A stretch of 64,000 bases of DNA from Eubacteriales bacterium (GTDB lineage: Bacteria > Bacillota > Clostridia > Oscillospirales > CAG-272): positions 2,509 to 66,508 of the forward strand of contig JAZORZ010000071.1 in the NCBI GenBank assembly GCA_045656885.1, in the 5' to 3' direction. The position numbers and the translations under genes are program-made. The notes beneath the pieces were generated by a model. That model was given only the letters and a program-made list of their open reading frames with translations. It made no database searches and was not told the DNA's origin. The stretch's first letter is position 1; every line of letters begins with the position of its first letter. Of the stretch, positions 5,152 to 50,662 are shown one piece after another.

Positions 5152-7107
5152 ATGAAATACATCCCCTACGTTAATATAAAACAAGGTTCGGCGTCGATCT
5201 GCCGATTTTCCAACGGCAACACGTTGCCGCTGGTGCAACGTCCGTTTGGTATGGCACCCTTCTGCTTGCAATCGGACGCGGGCGGCGGTCGTTGGTTCTT
5301 TCACCCCGACCACCCTTGCACCGAAGGTATCCGGCTGACGCATCAGCCCAGCCCTTGGCTTGGTGAATACGCCACCTTTTTGATGATTCCGCAAAATGAC
5401 GTTATCTCCAACAACGCACCCGGTGCGTGGTCGGGATACCGTCCGCGCGAGTCGGTCTTTCGCCCCGATTACCTCAAGGTGACCTTTTTGCGCTCCAACT
5501 GCACGTTTGAGCTCACCCCCACCGATCGCGGTGGCGCGATTCGTCTCACATTTGGCGATGAACGCCCCTCGGTTCTCTCCTTCCTGCCCGTAACGGGCAA
5601 CTACGCCTACCGTTATGATGCCGACACACACACCCTCATTGGCACAAACGATGCCACGGGCTCGGGTGTTGCGGTCAATTTCAAATCCTATCTTGCGGTC
5701 AAGTTTTTGGGTGATGTGGTAGACGATGAAAAGGTGATTATTCAAAGCGGCAAGCACACCACCAACGTGCACGTACCGCTCAAAAGCAAAACCGTTGAGG
5801 CGCGCATCGGGTTCTCCTACATCAGCGAGGAAATGGCACTTGCCACCATCGAGCGCGAATGCGGTTCTCGTTCCTTTGAGGAGATTCGCGTGGAAAGCGA
5901 GGACGTTTGGGAAGAAAAGCTCTCCCGCGTTGAGGTAACCACCAAGACCGAGGACGAAATGAAGACCTTTTATTCCTGCTTATGGCGTACCTTCCTCTTT
6001 CCGCAAAAGGCATATGAATTAGACGCCAACGGCAATCCCGTGCATTACGTTCCCGCCACGGGCGAAGTCATGCCGGGATACCGTTACACAAACAACGGCT
6101 TTTGGGATACAAGCCGCACGGTATATCCCCTCTTTACCTTGACTGCTCGCGAAGAATTTGCCGAGATGCTTGAGGGCTTTGTAAACGATTACAAAGAGTG
6201 CGGTTGGCTGCCCCGTTGGCTTGGCTTGGGCGAGATCGGTTGTATGCCGAGCACCTTGATCGACAGCGTGATCGCCTGTGCCGCCGTCAACGGCATTGGC
6301 AAAAAAGAAACGCTCGAGGTAGCACTCGAAGGCATGCTCCACCACGCAAACAACGAGAGCGAAAATCCTATCTACGGTCGCAACGGTGCGCTCTCCTATT
6401 GCAAATACGGCTACGTGCCGAGAAACGAGCAGCGCGAGTCTGTCAACCTCACGCTCGATGCCGCCTACGGTGACTGGTGCATCGCAACAGTTGCAAAAAT
6501 TCTCGGCAGAGATGATTTGGTAGACGAATACATGGCACGCTCCAAAAATTATAAAAATCTGTTTGACCCCTCTACCGGCTTTATGCGCGGCCGCGACACC
6601 GACGGCAATATGGCACCGGACTTTGACCCCTGCACGTGGGGCGGTGAATACACCGAGGGCTCCGCTTGGCAAAACTCGATGTTCGTTCCTCACGACATAG
6701 AGGGTCTTGCCGCTCTCTATGGCGGGCGCGAGCAGTTCCTCGCCAAGCTCGACAAGCTCTTTGCAACCCCTCCCCGCTACCGCGTATTCGGCTATGGCAA
6801 CGAGATTCACGAAATGACCGAAATGGCTGCCGCCGACTTTGGTCAGTGCGCTATCTCCAACCAGCCGTCCTTCCATCTGCCCTTCCTCTATGCCGCTCTC
6901 GGTGAACAGGAAAAAACCGACTACTGGGTAACAAAACTCTGCCGCGAGGCCTTCTCATGGCACAACGACGGCTTCCCCGGTGACGAGGACAACGGCACCA
7001 CCGCCGCTTGGTACGTCCTCGCCTCCCTCGGCTTCTATCCCCTCTGCCCAGGCCATAAAGAGATGATTAAGTGCAAGCAACAGGTAAAGAGTTATAAGAT
7101 TAGATAA
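5152..7107 (+). CDS. GH92-family alpha-mannosidase-like glycoside hydrolase, apparently lacking the usual C-terminal segment
   Basis: AAGGAG RBS. GH92-like blocks: NGNTLPLVQRPFGM, GFWDTSRTVYPLFTL, GWLPRWL, GYVPRNEQRESVNLTLDAAYGDWCIA, EGSAWQNSMFVPHD, SNQPSFHLPFLY, FPGDEDNGTTAAWYVLASLGFYPLCPG. The ORF ends 20 aa after the CPG block. Confidence 0.7.
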   Translation: MKYIPYVNIKQGSASICRFSNGNTLPLVQRPFGMAPFCLQSDAGGGRWFFHPDHPCTEGIRLTHQPSPWLGEYATFLMIPQNDVISNNAPGAWSGYRPRESVFRPDYLKVTFLRSNCTFELTPTDRGGAIRLTFGDERPSVLSFLPVTGNYAYRYDADTHTLIGTNDATGSGVAVNFKSYLAVKFLGDVVDDEKVIIQSGKHTTNVHVPLKSKTVEARIGFSYISEEMALATIERECGSRSFEEIRVESEDVWEEKLSRVEVTTKTEDEMKTFYSCLWRTFLFPQKAYELDANGNPVHYVPATGEVMPGYRYTNNGFWDTSRTVYPLFTLTAREEFAEMLEGFVNDYKECGWLPRWLGLGEIGCMPSTLIDSVIACAAVNGIGKKETLEVALEGMLHHANNESENPIYGRNGALSYCKYGYVPRNEQRESVNLTLDAAYGDWCIATVAKILGRDDLVDEYMARSKNYKNLFDPSTGFMRGRDTDGNMAPDFDPCTWGGEYTEGSAWQNSMFVPHDIEGLAALYGGREQFLAKLDKLFATPPRYRVFGYGNEIHEMTEMAAADFGQCAISNQPSFHLPFLYAALGEQEKTDYWVTKLCREAFSWHNDGFPGDEDNGTTAAWYVLASLGFYPLCPGHKEMIKCKQQVKSYKIR

Positions 7108-7117
7108 GGACGCGGTT

Positions 7118-7295
7118 TTGTGGGGGAACTTCTTTCGAGAAGTTCCCCAACACCCCCTCAAGAACTTGCTGACAAGGGGTTTATCAAAAGAAGTCCGCAG
7201 TGCGCCAACGGACGGTCGACGCAAGCGGCACGCTTGCTTTTGCTGCCGCGAGCCGGTGGGCACCACCAAGACCCCGCCGGCTCAGAAAGTTGATT
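7118..7295 (+). repeat. Family-A long intergenic element, copy 2
   Basis: gtgggggaacttctttcgagaagttcccc hairpin + accccctcaagaac + linker + two-hairpin module. Begins 11 nt after the GH92 stop. Confidence 0.8.
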
Positions 7296-10823: not shown

Positions 10824-12023
10824 TTATTTTTTGCCCTCCAAAATCACGGGTGGACGGCGCAACTGCTCATCGGCGGCAATGGCGCGGGGCAAGCATTTGG
10901 AATAGAGAGCGGCAGATGCCGACTCCAATTCAAACTGTCGTGCCGCGGCAGGCGTTTCGGGCAGGTCGGTCTGGCGTGTAACAATAGGCAGGTCGCTTGT
11001 TTTGCGAGCAGATGCAAGGAATGCTCTGCCTACCTCGTTTGCCGCAAACAAACGGACATAGGAAACAGGTGCACGCAGATCCTCCTTCTTGACGCGCAAG
11101 AGTGCCGCAAGAACACCACGGCGGATACGCGCATCGGGATATTTTTTGGTGGCACAAAGCTCATAAAACTCGGTGAGCGTGGTGGCTTTGAGCGCGGCGT
11201 TGTGCAGCCGCCCCGCAAGACCGCTGCCAAGGCCTACGTAGCCCTCAAGCTCCTTTTGCGGTGTGAGTGCCAGCATGCCAAGCACCAACGCCTCAGCATT
11301 TTTGAGGGTTGCGGGTGCTGTTTTGGCTCTGCCCTCGCGGCGGGACACCTCTCCGCAAACACCCGGAAGATAGGACATAATGCTTTCTATTTCGTTTTCC
11401 TCCCATGCGCGACGTAGGGCGGTGGCAGAGGGGAACTCTCCCATAACCAACTCCTGCTCGGCATATCCGCTGCCCTCACGCTTAATTGTAACGGGCTTTA
11501 TGCTCGATTGCAGCGCGCGAATGGCACGCAGATAGGAAATACCGAGAATATCGTTTGGTGCACATATAGCACCCTTATCGTTTGCCATTTGGGAAAGCAG
11601 CTTGAAATAAGCACTTGCCGTGCCACCCTCGCGCTCGGTCGCTGCGATGTATGCCGCTTGGAATTCTTGGGAGTCGGCAACCTCCGCATAACGCGAAAGA
11701 AGCTCCAAGTCCCCTGACTCCGAGCCAAACCAAACCTCATCTACACCAAGACGGGAAAGGATCTCCACACCGGCGCGTCCAAAAAATTCTGCGCTCGATG
11801 CCGCATACGGAAAGGGAAGCTCAACAACGGCATCTGCCCCGCTCGATACCAAAATTTCGGCTCTCGCGTGCGGCGATAGCACCGCCGCTTCTCCGCGTTG
11901 CACAAAGTTGCCACTCATAACGCAAATGATGGCGTCGGCTCCGCTCTCGCGTGCACATTTCATTAAATATTCATGCCCCCCGTGATACGGGTTACATTCG
12001 CAAATAATACCTATGGTGTGCAT
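10824..12023 (-). CDS. tmcAL: tRNA(Met) cytidine acetate ligase (YlbM/UPF0348 nucleotidyltransferase family)
   Basis: ORF 10824..12161 trimmed to ATG 12023. MHTIGIICECNPYHGGHEYL..ICVMSGNFVQRGE..NDILGISYLRAI. Confidence 0.8.
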   Translation of the reverse strand: MHTIGIICECNPYHGGHEYLMKCARESGADAIICVMSGNFVQRGEAAVLSPHARAEILVSSGADAVVELPFPYAASSAEFFGRAGVEILSRLGVDEVWFGSESGDLELLSRYAEVADSQEFQAAYIAATEREGGTASAYFKLLSQMANDKGAICAPNDILGISYLRAIRALQSSIKPVTIKREGSGYAEQELVMGEFPSATALRRAWEENEIESIMSYLPGVCGEVSRREGRAKTAPATLKNAEALVLGMLALTPQKELEGYVGLGSGLAGRLHNAALKATTLTEFYELCATKKYPDARIRRGVLAALLRVKKEDLRAPVSYVRLFAANEVGRAFLASARKTSDLPIVTRQTDLPETPAAARQFELESASAALYSKCLPRAIAADEQLRRPPVILEGKK

Positions 12024-12153
12024 AAAAACCTTCTTTCTTTTTTGCGCGGGCACTATTGAACGTCCGCGCAGCTTGGTTTTCTTCTCTTTTGTAATTATAC
12101 CACAAAAATCGGCATTTGTCAAACAGATTTGCGGATTTTGGCACGCAAAAAAG

Positions 12154-12279
12154 TTTTCCACACCTTTCCCTCTTGTATGTGCAAAACTGTGGAAAAGTCT
12201 GTGGATTATGCGGAAAACCTGTATTTTGGTGCCATTTTTCGCCTTTTTTAGACCGTTTATGCAAAAAACCTGTGGAAAA
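12154..12279. promoter_or_regulatory. cluster of four DnaA boxes outside oriC
   Basis: TTTTCCACA (12154), TGTGGAAAA (12188), TGTGGATTA (12200), TGTGGAAAA (12271). Each is 1 mismatch from TTATCCACA/TGTGGATAA. Confidence 0.7.
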
Positions 12280-42382: not shown

Positions 42383-42391
42383 AAAAAGAAA

Positions 42392-42421
42392 AGCACCTGT
42401 GTTTTTTCACAGGTGCTTTTT
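42392..42421. terminator. bidirectional rho-independent terminator
   Basis: AGCACCTGTG-TTTTTT-CACAGGTGCT flanked by an A-run and a T-run. Confidence 0.8.
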
Positions 42422-42437
42422 GTGTTGTGAAACTTGA

Positions 42438-43379
42438 TCAGGTTTTAGAAAAAGGAAAAAGAGTAAGCATAAGTTCTTTTCCTGTTGCGAGCATAGAAAC
42501 AGAGGAAAGAAGTGCTTTTTGTCTAAGCGGAATATGCAAAGAGATTGCGCCGTCGTTCTCGTCTATTATATAATCCTTAAAAATCGGGTGCTTTGCAAAA
42601 GATGCAACGTCTGCCGACGATGGAAGATCAAACGCAGTGGGTTTTGCAATTCTTTCCTTTATACTTTGTTCAATGCGTAAGCCGTATTCCTGCGACACGT
42701 GTTGCAAATTTGCATGTGTTTGTTCTCTGTCGGGCAGGGCAGATACCTTTCCGTTATAGCGGCGCATTGTCATAAAAGTGCAAAAGAGATATGCGCCAAG
42801 ACGATCCAGCTTTTGTTCGTCAAGAGAGATTTTTACACGTGAAATCGACATCTCTTGTAAGTGACAGCCAACAAGGTTTGCAATCATCAAAATGTGTGCC
42901 ACCGCGTTGGTTTGCCGCTTGGCTCCAAATAGGGCGTCCATATAGAATTGGAGCGTGCAAAGTTTGCTCTCAATGTTCAACCCGCGGTTGTTTTTGGGCT
43001 CATCTGATGCGTCAAAAAGTGCCGAAAACGCATACCGTTGTGCATTTTCATATGCTTTTTGCACCTCTTTGGGACTCTCATTCAAAAGAAACGCCAGTGC
43101 AAGCTCAAGGTGCGGCCACGCAGGGTAAACCAAGAGAGTACCGCGAGAAGAGGGAAGTATTAAAAACTCTTTGCTGCCGTTAAACAATGTTAGCAGAGTT
43201 GCCATTTGGGCGGCCGAAAACGCAAAAGCTCCCGTGCCTCGACAGGATGCGATAACGTTAACACCGTTATGAAGATCGACCACAAAGCAATCTTCAAACA
43301 CCGCACGCCAAAAGCGCGCATCTTTGCCCTGATAAAAACTTTCTTCGGGCAGGTAACTTTCAATTTTATAACCACGCAT
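42438..43379 (-). CDS. hypothetical 313-aa protein, partner of the NERD gene
   Basis: ATG 43379 lies 5 nt after the NERD TGA (the track start 43388 is a TTG). No own RBS. No recognisable motif. Confidence 0.6.
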   Translation of the reverse strand: MRGYKIESYLPEESFYQGKDARFWRAVFEDCFVVDLHNGVNVIASCRGTGAFAFSAAQMATLLTLFNGSKEFLILPSSRGTLLVYPAWPHLELALAFLLNESPKEVQKAYENAQRYAFSALFDASDEPKNNRGLNIESKLCTLQFYMDALFGAKRQTNAVAHILMIANLVGCHLQEMSISRVKISLDEQKLDRLGAYLFCTFMTMRRYNGKVSALPDREQTHANLQHVSQEYGLRIEQSIKERIAKPTAFDLPSSADVASFAKHPIFKDYIIDENDGAISLHIPLRQKALLSSVSMLATGKELMLTLFPFSKT

Positions 43380-43384
43380 AGCAA

Positions 43385-44215
43385 TCAAAAAACAATATGA
43401 CGCACGCGGTGGAGCGCGATCTTTTGGCAGGTTCCGTCAAGGCACATCACGTCAAAAACCGTGTCACGGTTGTAAAAAACGTCACTCGCGCCATTGGTAA
43501 AGGTGATAAAGAGCTTATCCTTCATTTTCAGCGGTTGCGTTTCCACGCTCAAATATGCAATGCTACCCGTATCAACGCGCACAAGAGAGCCGTCGGCGGC
43601 ATCGCAATCAAAAAAGCAATCAGCAAGCATACCCTTGCAAAATTCGCTGTTGCGGCTGTAAAAGCGTGTGCAGTGAAGGATCTGTGCAGGGTCTGCAAAG
43701 GGCTCCTTTTGTGCCAACTCATTTGCGCGTTTTTTGATGTACGGAATGGCTTTTTGCGCTGTTAAGAGGGCAATGCCGTCCATTTCCTCGGGGAGTGTGA
43801 TCTTGCAATCGGGCTCGGCAAAAATCACAACACCGCAAATGGGCGTGGCCGTTTTGTAAAACCTGTGCATTTTATCGATGAATTGCTTGGTTGTGCCAAC
43901 GGGGCTTTTGAGCGTTTTATGCACACCGTTCTCTTTGTTTTGGTAAAAATCACCGTTTTTTTCCTGCCCGATCTCGCCTTTCCAATTTTTCACCTCGATG
44001 ACAAACGGAACGTTTTTGTGAATGACAAGAAAGTCCTTTTCGAGATAGAGCTTTTTATGGGGAACGACAACGTTTCGAATAACGCAATCAAAGCTTGTGC
44101 AAAGCAGGCGGTAGATGTTTTCCTCGCCGTCCGCTCCAAAGCTTTCAATCTCCTCCAGTGGGGGTAGATGCTTGGCACTCGCGCGGTTCCACATGGTTTT
44201 CAAAATTTGACTCAT
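43385..44215 (-). CDS. NERD (nuclease-related) domain protein with unassigned C-terminal domain
   Basis: ORF trimmed to ATG 44215 behind AGAGG. GEENIYRLL..VIRNVVVP..EKDFLVIHKNVPFVIEVKNWKGEI follows the NERD pattern (E..D-hydrophobic..E.K.w.G). Confidence 0.7.
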   Translation of the reverse strand: MSQILKTMWNRASAKHLPPLEEIESFGADGEENIYRLLCTSFDCVIRNVVVPHKKLYLEKDFLVIHKNVPFVIEVKNWKGEIGQEKNGDFYQNKENGVHKTLKSPVGTTKQFIDKMHRFYKTATPICGVVIFAEPDCKITLPEEMDGIALLTAQKAIPYIKKRANELAQKEPFADPAQILHCTRFYSRNSEFCKGMLADCFFDCDAADGSLVRVDTGSIAYLSVETQPLKMKDKLFITFTNGASDVFYNRDTVFDVMCLDGTCQKIALHRVRHIVF

Positions 44216-44245
44216 TTTTATAACCTCTTTTATTTCTTCTCTTGC

Positions 44246-44274
44246 AGTATAGCACAAAATTTCAAAACAGTCAA
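44246..44274 (-). promoter_or_regulatory. promoter of the NERD operon
   Basis: The minus strand reads TTGACT-17 nt (ending TGc)-TATACT. Confidence 0.6.
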
Positions 44275-44302
44275 GGGGAAAAGCAATTTCTGTTGATACG
44301 TA

Positions 44303-44328
44303 TAAAAAAGAGCGACCGGCGGTCGCTC
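44303..44328 (-). terminator. rho-independent terminator of the XRE gene
   Basis: GAGCGACC-GGC-GGTCGCTC followed on the minus strand by TTTTTT. Confidence 0.7.
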
Positions 44329-44334
44329 TCAAAA

Positions 44335-44547
44335 TCATTTTTCTTCGTCTTTTACGTATTCCAAAATATCGCTTACATTGCACTCTAAAGCCACACAAAT
44401 GCGGTCTAAAATATAACTGTCATAGCGAATAACGCGATTTTTATAGTAACGGTCGATTGTTTGAAATTTAATTTCCGTCCTTTTTGCCAATTCATATCGG
44501 GTAATGCCGCGCTTTTCCAAAATTTTATCGATTGTAAGTCTTATCAT
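44335..44547 (-). CDS. XRE-family HTH transcriptional regulator (70 aa)
   Basis: ILEKRGITRYELAKRTEIKFQTIDRYYKN Cro/C1-type HTH. AGAGAGGA RBS. Confidence 0.8.
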   Translation of the reverse strand: MIRLTIDKILEKRGITRYELAKRTEIKFQTIDRYYKNRVIRYDSYILDRICVALECNVSDILEYVKDEEK

Positions 44548-44565
44548 TTTTATTCCTCTCTTTCT

Positions 44566-44636
44566 GTATATATTCTAACGAATATATACCCACTTGACAA
44601 TCTACTTGTTTTGGTATATACTTATATAAGTATATA
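44566..44636. promoter_or_regulatory. divergent control region: two perfect palindromes flanking/overlapping a TTGACA-17-TATACT promoter
   Basis: GTATATATTC-TAAC-GAATATATAC (44566-44589). TTGACA 44594-44599, TATACT 44617-44622. 22-bp perfect palindrome TATATACTTATATAAGTATATA (44615-44636). Confidence 0.7.
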
Positions 44637-44652
44637 TAAAAAGAGAGGTTTT

Positions 44653-44982
44653 ATGAAACTTTTAATCGTTGGTTCAAGAAGCATTACAAGCTTTGACTTA
44701 TCTCCATATATTTCAAAAGAAGCAGACACCATTATCAGTGGGGGGGCAAGCGGTATAGATTCCTTGGCAGAACAATACGCCGACATGCACCGACTCTCAA
44801 AGTATATTATAAGGCCTTGCTATAATCGATTTGGCCGCGCTGCACCACTCAAGCGAAATGAGCAAATGATTGACATGGCAGATGAAATATTGATCATTTG
44901 GGACGGACATTCAAAAGGAACAAAATACACAATACAGTATGCAATCAAAACCAACAAACCATTAACGGTTGTTACAATTTGA
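44653..44982 (+). CDS. DUF2493/SLOG-like Rossmann-fold protein (109 aa)
   Basis: MKLLIVGSRS..IISGGASGIDSLAEQYA..GRAAPLKRNEQMIDMADEILIIWDGHSKGT matches the DUF2493 pattern (GxR..GGA.G.D..A...A.....G..A...RN..M....D......G.S.GT). Confidence 0.65.
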   Translation: MKLLIVGSRSITSFDLSPYISKEADTIISGGASGIDSLAEQYADMHRLSKYIIRPCYNRFGRAAPLKRNEQMIDMADEILIIWDGHSKGTKYTIQYAIKTNKPLTVVTI

Positions 44983-45026
44983 TTGTTTTGTGGAATTGTT
45001 GAATCGTTTATAAAAAGAACAAAAAA

Positions 45027-45050
45027 AGAGCGACCTCTGTCGCTCTTTTT
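45027..45050. terminator. bidirectional rho-independent terminator
   Basis: AGAGCGAC-CTCT-GTCGCTCT flanked by an A-run and a T-run. Confidence 0.8.
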
Positions 45051-45068: not shown

Positions 45069-45827
45069 TTATGCAAGTTTGCTTTTTGTGTGTCCTTTTG
45101 CCTTTTCTTTTATCGGCTTGCCGTTTGCATCAAATTGCATCTTTCCAAGCTCGTTGCAACGGTTGCAAAGGTATTTTGCAATTTGGTCTCGGCTTTTGTA
45201 TTTTGCACAAAGCTCCGAATACATTACGGGAGAGTCGAATATGTAGGTGCGGTCACTTTTGCGAAAATAAGAAACGTAGATAGGAAGATCCATACCCTTC
45301 TTTTTACAGCAGTCTGCGAGAAGGACAAATCCCTCGTGAAAGCCCTCAAGCTCAGAAAGGTATCCTTTTGTAGAATCCTCGGGGAAAACAACAATGTTAT
45401 CGCCGCTCTTCAATGCCTCAATACTCTCTCGCAAAGTTTTTACAAGGCGCACGTCACGATAGGTGGAGATCAAGTCAAATCCCGCATAAAAGAGGTGCGT
45501 CAGAGGGCTTGCAATCAGGCAGAACAGCCGTGCCAGATGAATATTCCAATGCTTTTTTTCGTGAAAATAAACCTTTGTTTGATATTTATAAAGCGGGATC
45601 AATCCCGAGTTCATTTCATGTGCTCCCCACATACGAATGGGCTTGTCACAGTAGATTTCAAGCGACATGGGAGAATCTGTTCCTTCGTGGTTAGATAAGA
45701 TCAATGCACTGTTTTCAAACGGCTCACCAAGGTAAATAAAACGGGGCTCTTTGTATCTTACCCTCATTATTCTTTTTAATATTCTAAAATACAGTTTTCT
45801 TTTGGCTTTTTCTTTTTTCACTGTCAT
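45069..45827 (-). CDS. PlsC-family acyltransferase
   Basis: LILSNHEGTDSP (HX4D), VVFPEDS. Confidence 0.65.
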   Translation of the reverse strand: MTVKKEKAKRKLYFRILKRIMRVRYKEPRFIYLGEPFENSALILSNHEGTDSPMSLEIYCDKPIRMWGAHEMNSGLIPLYKYQTKVYFHEKKHWNIHLARLFCLIASPLTHLFYAGFDLISTYRDVRLVKTLRESIEALKSGDNIVVFPEDSTKGYLSELEGFHEGFVLLADCCKKKGMDLPIYVSYFRKSDRTYIFDSPVMYSELCAKYKSRDQIAKYLCNRCNELGKMQFDANGKPIKEKAKGHTKSKLA

Positions 45828-50223: not shown

Positions 50224-50662
50224 TTTTCCACACAAAAATATGAGTTTTCCACACAGTTTTCAACACCTGTGGAAAAGTTGTTGATTTTGATTTGATTTTA
50301 CACAGTTTTTCCGCAAAATCATGCTGTTCTTGCCGCCACGCGTAGGTTTTTCCCTGTGGAATGGCAAAATGAAGGAATGGTGGAAAAGTCGTCCTTTGTG
50401 TCGATTTTCTTCGACAAACTTCGTCTTTTCCACAAGAGTTTTCCACCCACAGCCAAATCGGCAAAACCGAAAAACGACCAATAGAGAAAAGTGGCGCCCT
50501 AAAAGAGTGTTTTTGGGTACTTTGAGCCCTCTTGGTGCAAAAAAGCCAACTCTTTTTCCACACCTCTTGGGGAACAAAAATCGCGGTTTATGCGCCACAG
50601 ATACACAATTCGGGGCTTTCCACAGTTTCCCCTGCCCCTACTACTATTACTATTTCATTTAT
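50224..50662 (+). other. oriC: oriC: DnaA-box cluster, GC cluster, DnaA-trios and adjacent AT-rich unwinding region
   Basis: TTTTCCACA at 50224, 50245, 50426 and 50554. TGTGGAAAA at 50268. Weaker boxes at 50355, 50379, 50439 and 50616. After the last box (CTTTCCACA 50616-50624) come the GC cluster CCCCTGCCCC (50629-50638), then CTA CTA CTA TTA CTA (50638-52) and an AT-rich run. Confidence 0.85.

Follow-up and report, generated by a model that had tools for sequence, protein, structure and literature searches.

NERD domains (Pfam PF08378) are found in stand-alone proteins and recur as effector domains of bacterial defence systems (PMC12839542; 10.64898/2026.04.06.716636). In PglW of type 2 BREX, MADS6, MkoA and the PADLOC candidate 'NERD+UvrD', the domain is an N-terminal module of kinase or helicase proteins of 560-1600 amino acids (aa), encoded in multi-gene loci (PMC12839542). 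ZwsA (Zowangsin), from Pseudomonas, combines VHS, DUF647, NERD and S4 domains; it is a NERD-domain RNA endonuclease acting against RNA phages, for which the catalytic E/D/E/K residues are required (bioRxiv 10.64898/2026.04.06.716636). In turn, SmdA of Staphylococcus aureus is a NERD-like cell-division factor (bioRxiv 10.1101/2021.11.23.469651), and it shows that NERD-like proteins can be lineage-restricted housekeeping factors. Here we describe a NERD gene and the partner gene that follows it, found in a 64,000-nucleotide stretch (hereafter, the window) of the genome of an Eubacteriales bacterium (GenBank assembly GCA_045656885.1, contig JAZORZ010000071.1). An earlier, sequence-only reading of this DNA had proposed that the pair, together with an adjacent XRE-type repressor gene and a SLOG-like gene, was a candidate undescribed conflict module lying in an AT-rich patch.

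The four genes are present at the coordinates given by that reading, and a NERD gene beside XRE and SLOG genes resembles a defence island, yet there is none here. The comparative context divides the patch into a core operon, formed by the NERD gene and its partner, and an unrelated inserted cassette, formed by the other two genes. From the proposed module there remains a conserved and coupled pair whose partner belongs to an undescribed family; the toxin/immunity relationship, the gating by XRE, the unity of the four genes and an island location found no support. What is new in this locus is an additional, still unplaced domain on the NERD nuclease, together with a partner whose family has not been described. 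That partner, far faster-evolving than its nuclease and repeatedly lost, remains of interest.

A core operon of gut and rumen Clostridia

A scan of GTDB with one genome per species found the full-length NERD family in 46 species, all of them uncultured Clostridia from gut or rumen, under the labels Eubacteriales, Oscillospiraceae, 'Ruminococcus sp.' or Eubacterium sp. CAG:180. The window NERD protein has 300 homologues, and the 120 among them that were listed are 60-99% identical to it over their full length. Of the 45 species genomes that could be assessed, 38 have a partner homologue immediately after the NERD gene on the same strand, which bears out the pair as a conserved two-gene unit. 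The relationship can be followed to considerable divergence: the partner is 42% identical in L002-L004, the most divergent among the first matches (L001 and similar labels are our handles for the genomes and contigs compared), and in L007 a homologue of 335 aa is only 24% identical, yet is aligned by hhalign with 99.7% probability.

The surroundings of the pair are equally stable. The gene order dnaN-dnaA-copA-(251 aa)-NERD-partner-membrane gene-serS-parB-parA-rsmG-mnmG is common to L001, L002-L004, L007 and L009-L027, more than 25 genomes hold the pair in the same slot, and all 18 genomes or contigs of the near clade that were examined contain it. Six short contigs in all were recovered from metagenomes with the neighbouring membrane protein as seed; the partner is found in the five (of five) that could be assessed, and the NERD gene also wherever the contig is long enough. 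More distant pairs are surrounded by genes for RNase Y, DAP dehydrogenase, RsmB and GH109. A location in a variable or defence island is thus at odds with a pair that is syntenic beside serS-parBA and the replication origin (oriC), or that sits among housekeeping genes in distant relatives. Moreover, no relatives of either protein were found in the viral contigs of IMG/VR, the phages of INPHARED/GenBank or the plasmids of PLSDB, which speaks against a mobile conflict module, and no tRNA gene or Rfam element stands near the region as a mark of integration. The NERD-partner pair is a core chromosomal operon, vertically inherited in one clade of gut and rumen Clostridia (Oscillospiraceae-like metagenome-assembled genomes).

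The variable part of the locus is the slot upstream of NERD, not the NERD operon. Several observations concern this slot in other genomes. A type III glutamine synthetase (GlnA-III) gene stands upstream of NERD in L001 (4886-7096) and in L068 (4752-6842), and an uncharacterised gap of ~2.3-2.4 kb in L011, L014, L016 and L018 may hold the same gene. In far-clade genomes that carry NERD only (L005, 7081-7830; L006, 592-1341), the gene upstream of NERD encodes a protein with a metallo-beta-lactamase fold that matches the Anti-Pycsar Apyc1 Pfam family.

The genes of the neighbourhood evolve at very different rates. In the closest species, identity to the window protein is 96-99% for both SerS and ParB, 89-96% for DnaA, 80-87% for NERD, ~80% for CopA, 73-84% for the membrane protein and 54-63% for the partner; in the next clade it falls to 91-93% for SerS, 66-69% for NERD and 24-31% for the partner. 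The divergence of NERD and partner proceeds in step with that of SerS and ParB. According to the Nei-Gojobori method, the median non-synonymous rate (dN) is 0.11 for NERD, 0.32 for the partner and 0.017 for serS, with ratios to the synonymous rate (dN/dS) of 0.07-0.10, 0.2-0.26 and 0.03, respectively; as dS is near saturation in most pairs, only the closest pairs are reliable. These ratios indicate that both genes of the operon are real and subject to purifying selection. No gene of the neighbourhood evolves faster or is less constrained than the partner. Gene-wide positive selection on it is ruled out by its dN/dS of ~0.2.

The partner is dispensable, and it has been lost or broken repeatedly. 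In at least nine genomes the NERD gene is intact, retaining both its catalytic residues and its own promoter, and has no partner: the latter is replaced by PitA and PhoU-like genes in L023, deleted in L026, and absent from L030/L005, L031, L041 and L046 as well as from L067, L068 and L069, the last three still at the serS-parBA locus. In two further genomes (L022 and L078) the partner is split into two open reading frames (ORFs) beside an intact NERD gene. The retention of an intact NERD gene without its partner excludes an obligatory antitoxin or immunity role for the latter, and with it the toxin/immunity pair that had been suggested.

The NERD protein and its partner

The assignment of the 276-aa protein to the NERD family was borne out by Pfam (PF08378, E 2.5e-11, 44.5 bits against a cut-off of 22.1), the match covering residues 27-132 and profile positions 2-110 of 111. 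Within its PD-(D/E)xK core (aa 27-135), residues E31/E32, D61, E74 and K76 are invariant among 39 homologues that are 60-88% identical to the window protein. The structure model (pLDDT 84.5) fits the restriction-endonuclease-like alpha-beta-beta-beta-alpha-beta fold, and its N-terminal half was matched by Foldseek to Bax1 (6p4w; E 8.5e-4, prob 1.0) and to further PD-(D/E)xK proteins, namely BspD6I (prob 0.99), Hjc (0.95), Can2 (0.94) and McrC. A PDB sequence-profile search with the NERD alignment gave no match. The protein is soluble (maximum Kyte-Doolittle hydropathy over 19 residues of 1.12), and neither it nor the partner has a paralogue within the window. Altogether, these features argue for a PD-(D/E)xK endonuclease, with a predicted nuclease activity.

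The C-terminal part, which the earlier reading had been unable to place, corresponds in the model to an all-beta domain of ~95 aa (aa ~181-276) with roughly ten strands. It is as conserved as the core, with a mean pairwise identity of 0.71 versus 0.75. Foldseek found no significant structural match for this domain; low-probability ones concern the tandem PH domains of Rtt106 and FACT, as well as AbaSI and PvuRts1I. Such a domain is probably the substrate recogniser of the nuclease.

As for the 313-aa partner, the earlier statement that it shows no recognisable family holds against Pfam, NCBIfam, PADLOC and PHROGs; its best PADLOC match, Cas12_x1 (E 0.026), is noise, and a PDB sequence-profile search with the partner alignment gave no match either. 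It does have relatives: a large protein collection contains 95 homologous clusters, none of them annotated, the full-length ones being 42-68% identical to the window protein, and when 1.84 billion representatives were searched with a profile, ~140 clusters at 50% identity were found, almost all with proteins of ~300 aa. When 42 diverse members were compared with Pfam, the sole match was ACPS, in a protein of 536 aa, probably the result of a fusion or a miscall. These sequences make the partner a member of an undescribed family of ~300-aa soluble proteins.

The structure model of the partner is of moderate quality (pLDDT 68.8, pTM 0.73). It presents an N-terminal alpha/beta domain (~aa 28-118), a helical/beta core (136-209), a low-confidence, disordered linker (210-250) and a C-terminal beta region; the variable stretches are loops at ~aa 41-60, 119-135 and 210-225. 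A Foldseek comparison with PDB and BFVD returned nothing at E <= 1e-3. Weak matches link the N-terminal domain to Roadblock/LC7/longin proteins (LAMTOR, MP1-p14 and MglB; E 0.03-0.12, prob 0.6-0.9, target-side TM 0.33-0.40) and the whole protein to sensor histidine kinases (E 0.01-0.06). The idea of a histidine kinase, which had arisen from the motif look-alikes IANLVGC, RRYNG, YGLRIQQS and DG..LHIPL, was rejected: hhalign against a HisKA+HATPase_c kinase gave a probability of 0.5%, there is no Pfam match for histidine kinase or GHKL in the 42 members, and no histidine is invariant.

Two further occurrences of partner-like sequences deserve mention. P0095, a 319-aa protein on a 2.2-kb contig from ENA, joins an AAA_15/AAA_23 (RecF-like) N-terminus to a segment 94% identical to residues 206-312 of the partner, and is either a rearrangement or a misassembly. 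P0261, a distant homologue of the partner (E 2e-15), is encoded without NERD in L070-L072 (Logan contigs, 1-1200), immediately after a small ORF whose sequence is RHH-like, and is adjoined by AraC and metallo-beta-lactamase-fold genes. Its occurrence without NERD indicates that the partner family is not strictly tied to the nuclease.

Organisation and expression of the operon

The features of the locus are collected in Table 1. The gap of five nucleotides (TTGCT) between the NERD TGA and the partner ATG, with no purine-rich Shine-Dalgarno sequence upstream of the partner, was confirmed; an alternative TTG start at 43388 overlaps the NERD stop codon. Throughout the clade, wherever the first ATG is in view, the stop (TGA or TAA) and the partner ATG are separated by 1-6 nucleotides with no Shine-Dalgarno sequence (in two more distant genomes the start codon of the partner is unresolved). 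This arrangement points to translational coupling, in which the partner would be translated by reinitiation.

Table 1. Features of the NERD-partner operon and of the adjacent XRE-SLOG cassette (coordinates of the window)
Feature	Coordinates	Strand	Evidence
Terminator-like intrinsic hairpin (13-bp stem and T-run), end of the NERD-partner operon	42389..42420	-	
Partner gene, 313 aa, start ATG at 43379	42438..43379	-	ORF
Junction of NERD stop and partner start, 5 nucleotides, without Shine-Dalgarno sequence	43380..43384	-	
NERD nuclease gene (predicted), 276 aa	43385..44215	-	ORF + Pfam
NERD Shine-Dalgarno sequence AAGAGG	44224..44230	-	
NERD operon promoter, TTGACT-17-TGcTATACT, extended -10	44274-44246	-	consensus scan
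XRE terminator hairpin, near-copy of the 45023-45050 hairpin	44330-44308	-	consensus scan
XRE-type (HTH_26) regulator gene, 70 aa; separate cassette, outside the NERD operon	44335..44547	-	
Palindrome GTATATATTC-N4-GAATATATAC over the -10 of the XRE promoter; predicted XRE operator	44566..44589		
XRE promoter, TTGTCA-17-TAGAAT	44600-44572		
SLOG promoter, TTGACA-17-TATACT	44594-44622		
Perfect 22-bp palindrome TATATACTTATATAAGTATATA over the -10 of the SLOG promoter; predicted XRE operator	44615..44636		
SLOG/DprA-like gene (phrog_289), 109 aa; second gene of the cassette	44653..44982	+	
Bidirectional terminator hairpin separating SLOG from the 252-aa gene; marks the outer edge of the cassette	45023..45050	.	

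The separate promoter attributed to the NERD pair by the earlier reading, as well as the terminator attributed to the XRE gene, were found again. The promoter and 5' leader of the operon form a block of 60 nucleotides with a mean identity of 85% across 13 species, to be compared with a proportion of synonymous differences of ~0.59 in the NERD gene. The block is kept whichever gene stands upstream, be it XRE, GlnA-III or the 251-aa one, and more distant relatives carry a canonical TTGACA-17-TGnTAnAAT promoter before NERD. This conservation points to an operon that would be transcribed constitutively. In the window (44215-44274) and at the orthologous positions of L001, L002 and L010-L019, the spacer and the segment from +1 to the Shine-Dalgarno sequence are also conserved. 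With a mean identity of 85% against ~41% identical synonymous sites in the NERD gene, the promoter and leader exceed what synonymous sites retain, a hint that, besides the -35 and -10 elements, some regulatory site has gone unrecognised. By eye, the promoter shows no Cheo/LexA box, no formal scan having been made.

The described AT-richness of the 2.6-kb patch was confirmed for ~44000-45000, which corresponds to the XRE and SLOG genes (GC 0.34-0.40), but not for the patch as a whole, as the partner and NERD genes have a GC of 0.43-0.48, similar to that of neighbouring genes. The name 'acyltransferase' given to the 252-aa neighbour is poorly backed (Pfam Acyltransferase, E 0.16; TIGR00530, E 0.024); this gene (45069-45827) encodes a conserved protein, 84-89% identical among close relatives. 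Two clusters of DnaA-box-like sites, five sites each and mostly TTTTCCACA, are also present in the window. The one at 50224-50562 lies in the dnaA-dnaN spacer and is the probable oriC, ~6 kb from the NERD operon; the other is at ~12.0-12.3 kb (12017-12279).

The XRE-SLOG cassette

XRE and SLOG genes recur in conflict systems, and here they constitute a unit of their own. The XRE helix-turn-helix assignment stood up well (HTH_26, E 2.3e-17, 63.4 bits against a cut-off of 22; phrog_3 repressor, E 9e-9). That of the 109-aa protein to the SLOG superfamily was likewise borne out: DNA_processg_A (32.8 bits, cut-off 29.6) and phrog_289 (E 6e-19) support it, while YAcAr, the former DUF2493 (22 bits), and cpYpsA (21.9 bits) remain below their cut-offs. 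Relatives of the SLOG protein occur in 526 phage records, the best being from a Ruminococcus phage (45% identity), and PADLOC gave partial, weak matches to ShosA and PsyrA.

The two genes are divergent, with overlapping promoters. The GGTATATA half-site occurs in four copies in the 64-kb window, two of them at 44583-44590 and 44613-44620 and none near the NERD promoter. The gating of NERD by XRE, as had been supposed, is contradicted by the confinement of the predicted operators to the shared XRE/SLOG promoter region and by the conservation of the NERD promoter whatever gene stands upstream. On the basis of these sites we conclude that XRE would regulate itself and SLOG, not the NERD operon, and that its adjacency to NERD is probably incidental.

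Furthermore, the cassette has a distribution of its own. It is found in 8 of the 11 closest genomes, one of which (L009) has XRE alone, and it is absent from L001, L002, L012, L015, L019 and all the more distant genomes that keep the pair. Its position varies as well: copA and the 251-aa gene flank it in L014 and L018, so that the latter gene and ~2.4 kb separate it from NERD, and in L011 and L016 it is ~2.3 kb away. Its dS is decoupled from that of the flanks, being 0.02-0.08 versus 0.25 for serS between L013 and L017, and 1.5-2.8 versus 0.37 for serS between the window and L011. Patchy, variably placed and decoupled in this way, it does not fit a single four-gene module. XRE-SLOG is a small separate cassette (44308-45050), horizontally exchanged and with its own evolutionary history.

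In the window the cassette is bracketed by near-identical terminator hairpins, AGAGCGAC...GTCGCTCT (44308-44330 and 45023-45050). Two copies of the hairpin GGCGACCACGTGTCGCC surround it in L013 (5900-7030), and the cassette-free L002 presents a single such hairpin at the same place (7050-7250). This suggests that the cassette was inserted via duplication of a terminator or recombination at a terminator.

Possible roles of the pair

The reading that we favour, and to which we give about an even chance, is that of a lineage-specific, vertically inherited and constitutive NERD endonuclease with a dispensable, fast-evolving accessory protein, most likely engaged in host nucleic-acid maintenance or surveillance. 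The locus would then comprise two units. In the first (42389-44274), a strong, conserved sigma-A-type promoter and a good Shine-Dalgarno sequence would drive the NERD endonuclease, whose substrate would be recognised by the C-terminal beta domain; the partner, whose N-terminal domain is weakly Roadblock/GAF-like, would be translated by termination-reinitiation 1-6 nucleotides past the NERD stop, and would bind and modulate the nuclease. The most likely role would be cleavage that depends on the structure or the modification of the nucleic acid, in the service of repair, recombination or surveillance. In the second unit (44308-45050), the XRE repressor and the phage-type SLOG/DprA-like gene would be divergently expressed, each promoter under a palindromic operator. 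Several points weigh against this interpretation. NERD domains are common defence effectors (PglW, MADS6, MkoA), and with 46 species-level genomes in all, the family is too narrowly distributed for a universal housekeeping function. Variable genes (XRE-SLOG, GlnA-III, the 251-aa gene) gather in the slot just upstream of NERD, which is a hotspot for them. The difference in dN between the partner (0.32), NERD (0.11) and serS (0.017) would also fit a sensor engaged in an arms race. Finally, the partner model is of moderate confidence, with no structural match reaching E 1e-3.

There is an alternative that we regard as clearly less probable, though worth serious attention: the pair would be a defence system fixed in the core genome next to oriC, with NERD as the effector and the partner as the sensor or specificity subunit which, upon detection of phage components, would license cleavage. 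It is favoured by the recurrence of NERD in defence, by weak domain-level matches of the NERD protein in PADLOC and other family scans (MkoA 2e-4; PglW 0.012; C3a187 'NERD+UvrD' 0.017; MADS6 6e-7), by the tight coupling of the operon, by a non-synonymous rate in the partner ~3 times that of NERD and ~19 times that of serS, with hypervariable loops, by the variable genes collected in the adjoining slot, and by a faint architectural echo of the type IV restriction enzymes AbaSI/PvuRts1I (prob 0.13-0.38). Nevertheless, the distribution of the pair is not patchy, the near clade holding it at one fixed locus with vertical descent; copies on phages, plasmids and viral contigs were not found, and the neighbours are housekeeping genes in near and far clades. 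Besides, the partner matches no PADLOC model, its dN/dS of ~0.2 denotes relaxed purifying selection and not gene-wide positive selection, and NERD stays intact where the supposed sensor is lost. A more specific version, an undescribed core-fixed innate-immunity system in which a fast-evolving, Roadblock/GAF-like sensor of a new family would license a NERD nuclease with a new beta-rich recognition domain, seems to us a little less probable again. A mobile defence or addiction module is less likely than a nuclease of host maintenance. That XRE would repress the NERD operon and SLOG would be the nucleotide-sensing part of one four-gene conflict island is improbable: the four genes are adjacent in the window, L010, L013 and L017, XRE stands directly upstream of NERD in L009, and the SLOG protein weakly matches ShosA and PsyrA, but the XRE gene is closed by a terminator of its own and NERD has a separate promoter, the operator palindromes keep to the XRE/SLOG intergenic region, and the cassette is displaced from NERD or missing in many pair-bearing genomes, with a dS decoupled from the flanks. 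We find it harder still to credit a toxin-antitoxin or effector-immunity pair, in which a toxic NERD would be neutralised by its coupled partner. The two-gene coupled operon with the nuclease first would suit it; on the other side stand the genomes with NERD alone or with a broken partner, the lack of a DNA-binding antitoxin domain in either protein (Pfam), a partner bigger than the supposed toxin, and a fixed, vertically inherited locus with no mobile-element copies. Since the partner is dispensable it is not an antitoxin, and this reading is contradicted by the NERD-only genomes, as the XRE-gated island is by the independence of the cassette.

What is at stake differs among these possibilities. 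If the pair were a vertically fixed defence system, island-based scans would miss a class of immunity genes, and a core-fixed immunity of this kind would exemplify a defence system outside the 'defence island' lifestyle. If it were instead a repair or maintenance nuclease, it would constitute a lineage-specific DNA-processing factor in abundant uncultured gut Clostridia.

Comparison with known systems

With the stand-alone NERD proteins, the window protein has in common an above-threshold Pfam match, the invariant E...D...ExK residues and the predicted PD-(D/E)xK fold. Unlike them, it carries an extra conserved all-beta domain of ~95 aa and is coupled to a partner of an undescribed family, and its full-length family is found only in 46 species-level genomes of one gut Clostridia clade.

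Compared with PglW, MADS6, MkoA and 'NERD+UvrD', what is shared is the NERD domain itself. The PADLOC-DB v2 models gave only partial, domain-level matches for the window protein (E 2e-4 to 0.02), limited to the NERD core and scoring 28 bits versus a cut-off of 460, and 15 versus 990; there is no kinase, helicase or methylase near the window NERD gene. ZwsA offers the likeness of a NERD effector that works without a modification partner, but, given its VHS, DUF647 and S4 domains, homology beyond NERD is not expected. An RNA substrate for the window protein is possible, if unsupported.

The type IV enzymes AbaSI and PvuRts1I display the same layout, an N-terminal PD-(D/E)xK-type nuclease followed by a C-terminal beta domain, which in these enzymes is a beta-rich reader of modified bases, and enzymes of this type can be expressed constitutively without a methylase. 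The resemblance is sub-threshold in Foldseek (E 0.07-0.11, prob 0.13-0.38) and is accompanied by no sequence similarity, and the vertical inheritance of the window gene at a fixed locus is atypical for such enzymes.

On the side of the cassette, the likeness to XRE-regulated, phage-type SLOG/DprA-like genes lies in the matches to phrog_289 and DNA_processg_A, the 526 phage records and the divergent layout with XRE operators. In comparison with the DprA-like antitoxins ShosA and PsyrA, the 109-aa protein is a minimal single domain with partial matches and no adjacent toxin gene.

Lastly, the window protein can be set beside SmdA, with which it would share the condition of a NERD-related, vertically inherited and lineage-restricted core gene that has a housekeeping role and whose product has a conserved C-terminal region. 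SmdA is anchored in the membrane and several of the conserved NERD residues are missing from it, whereas the window protein is soluble and keeps all the catalytic ones.

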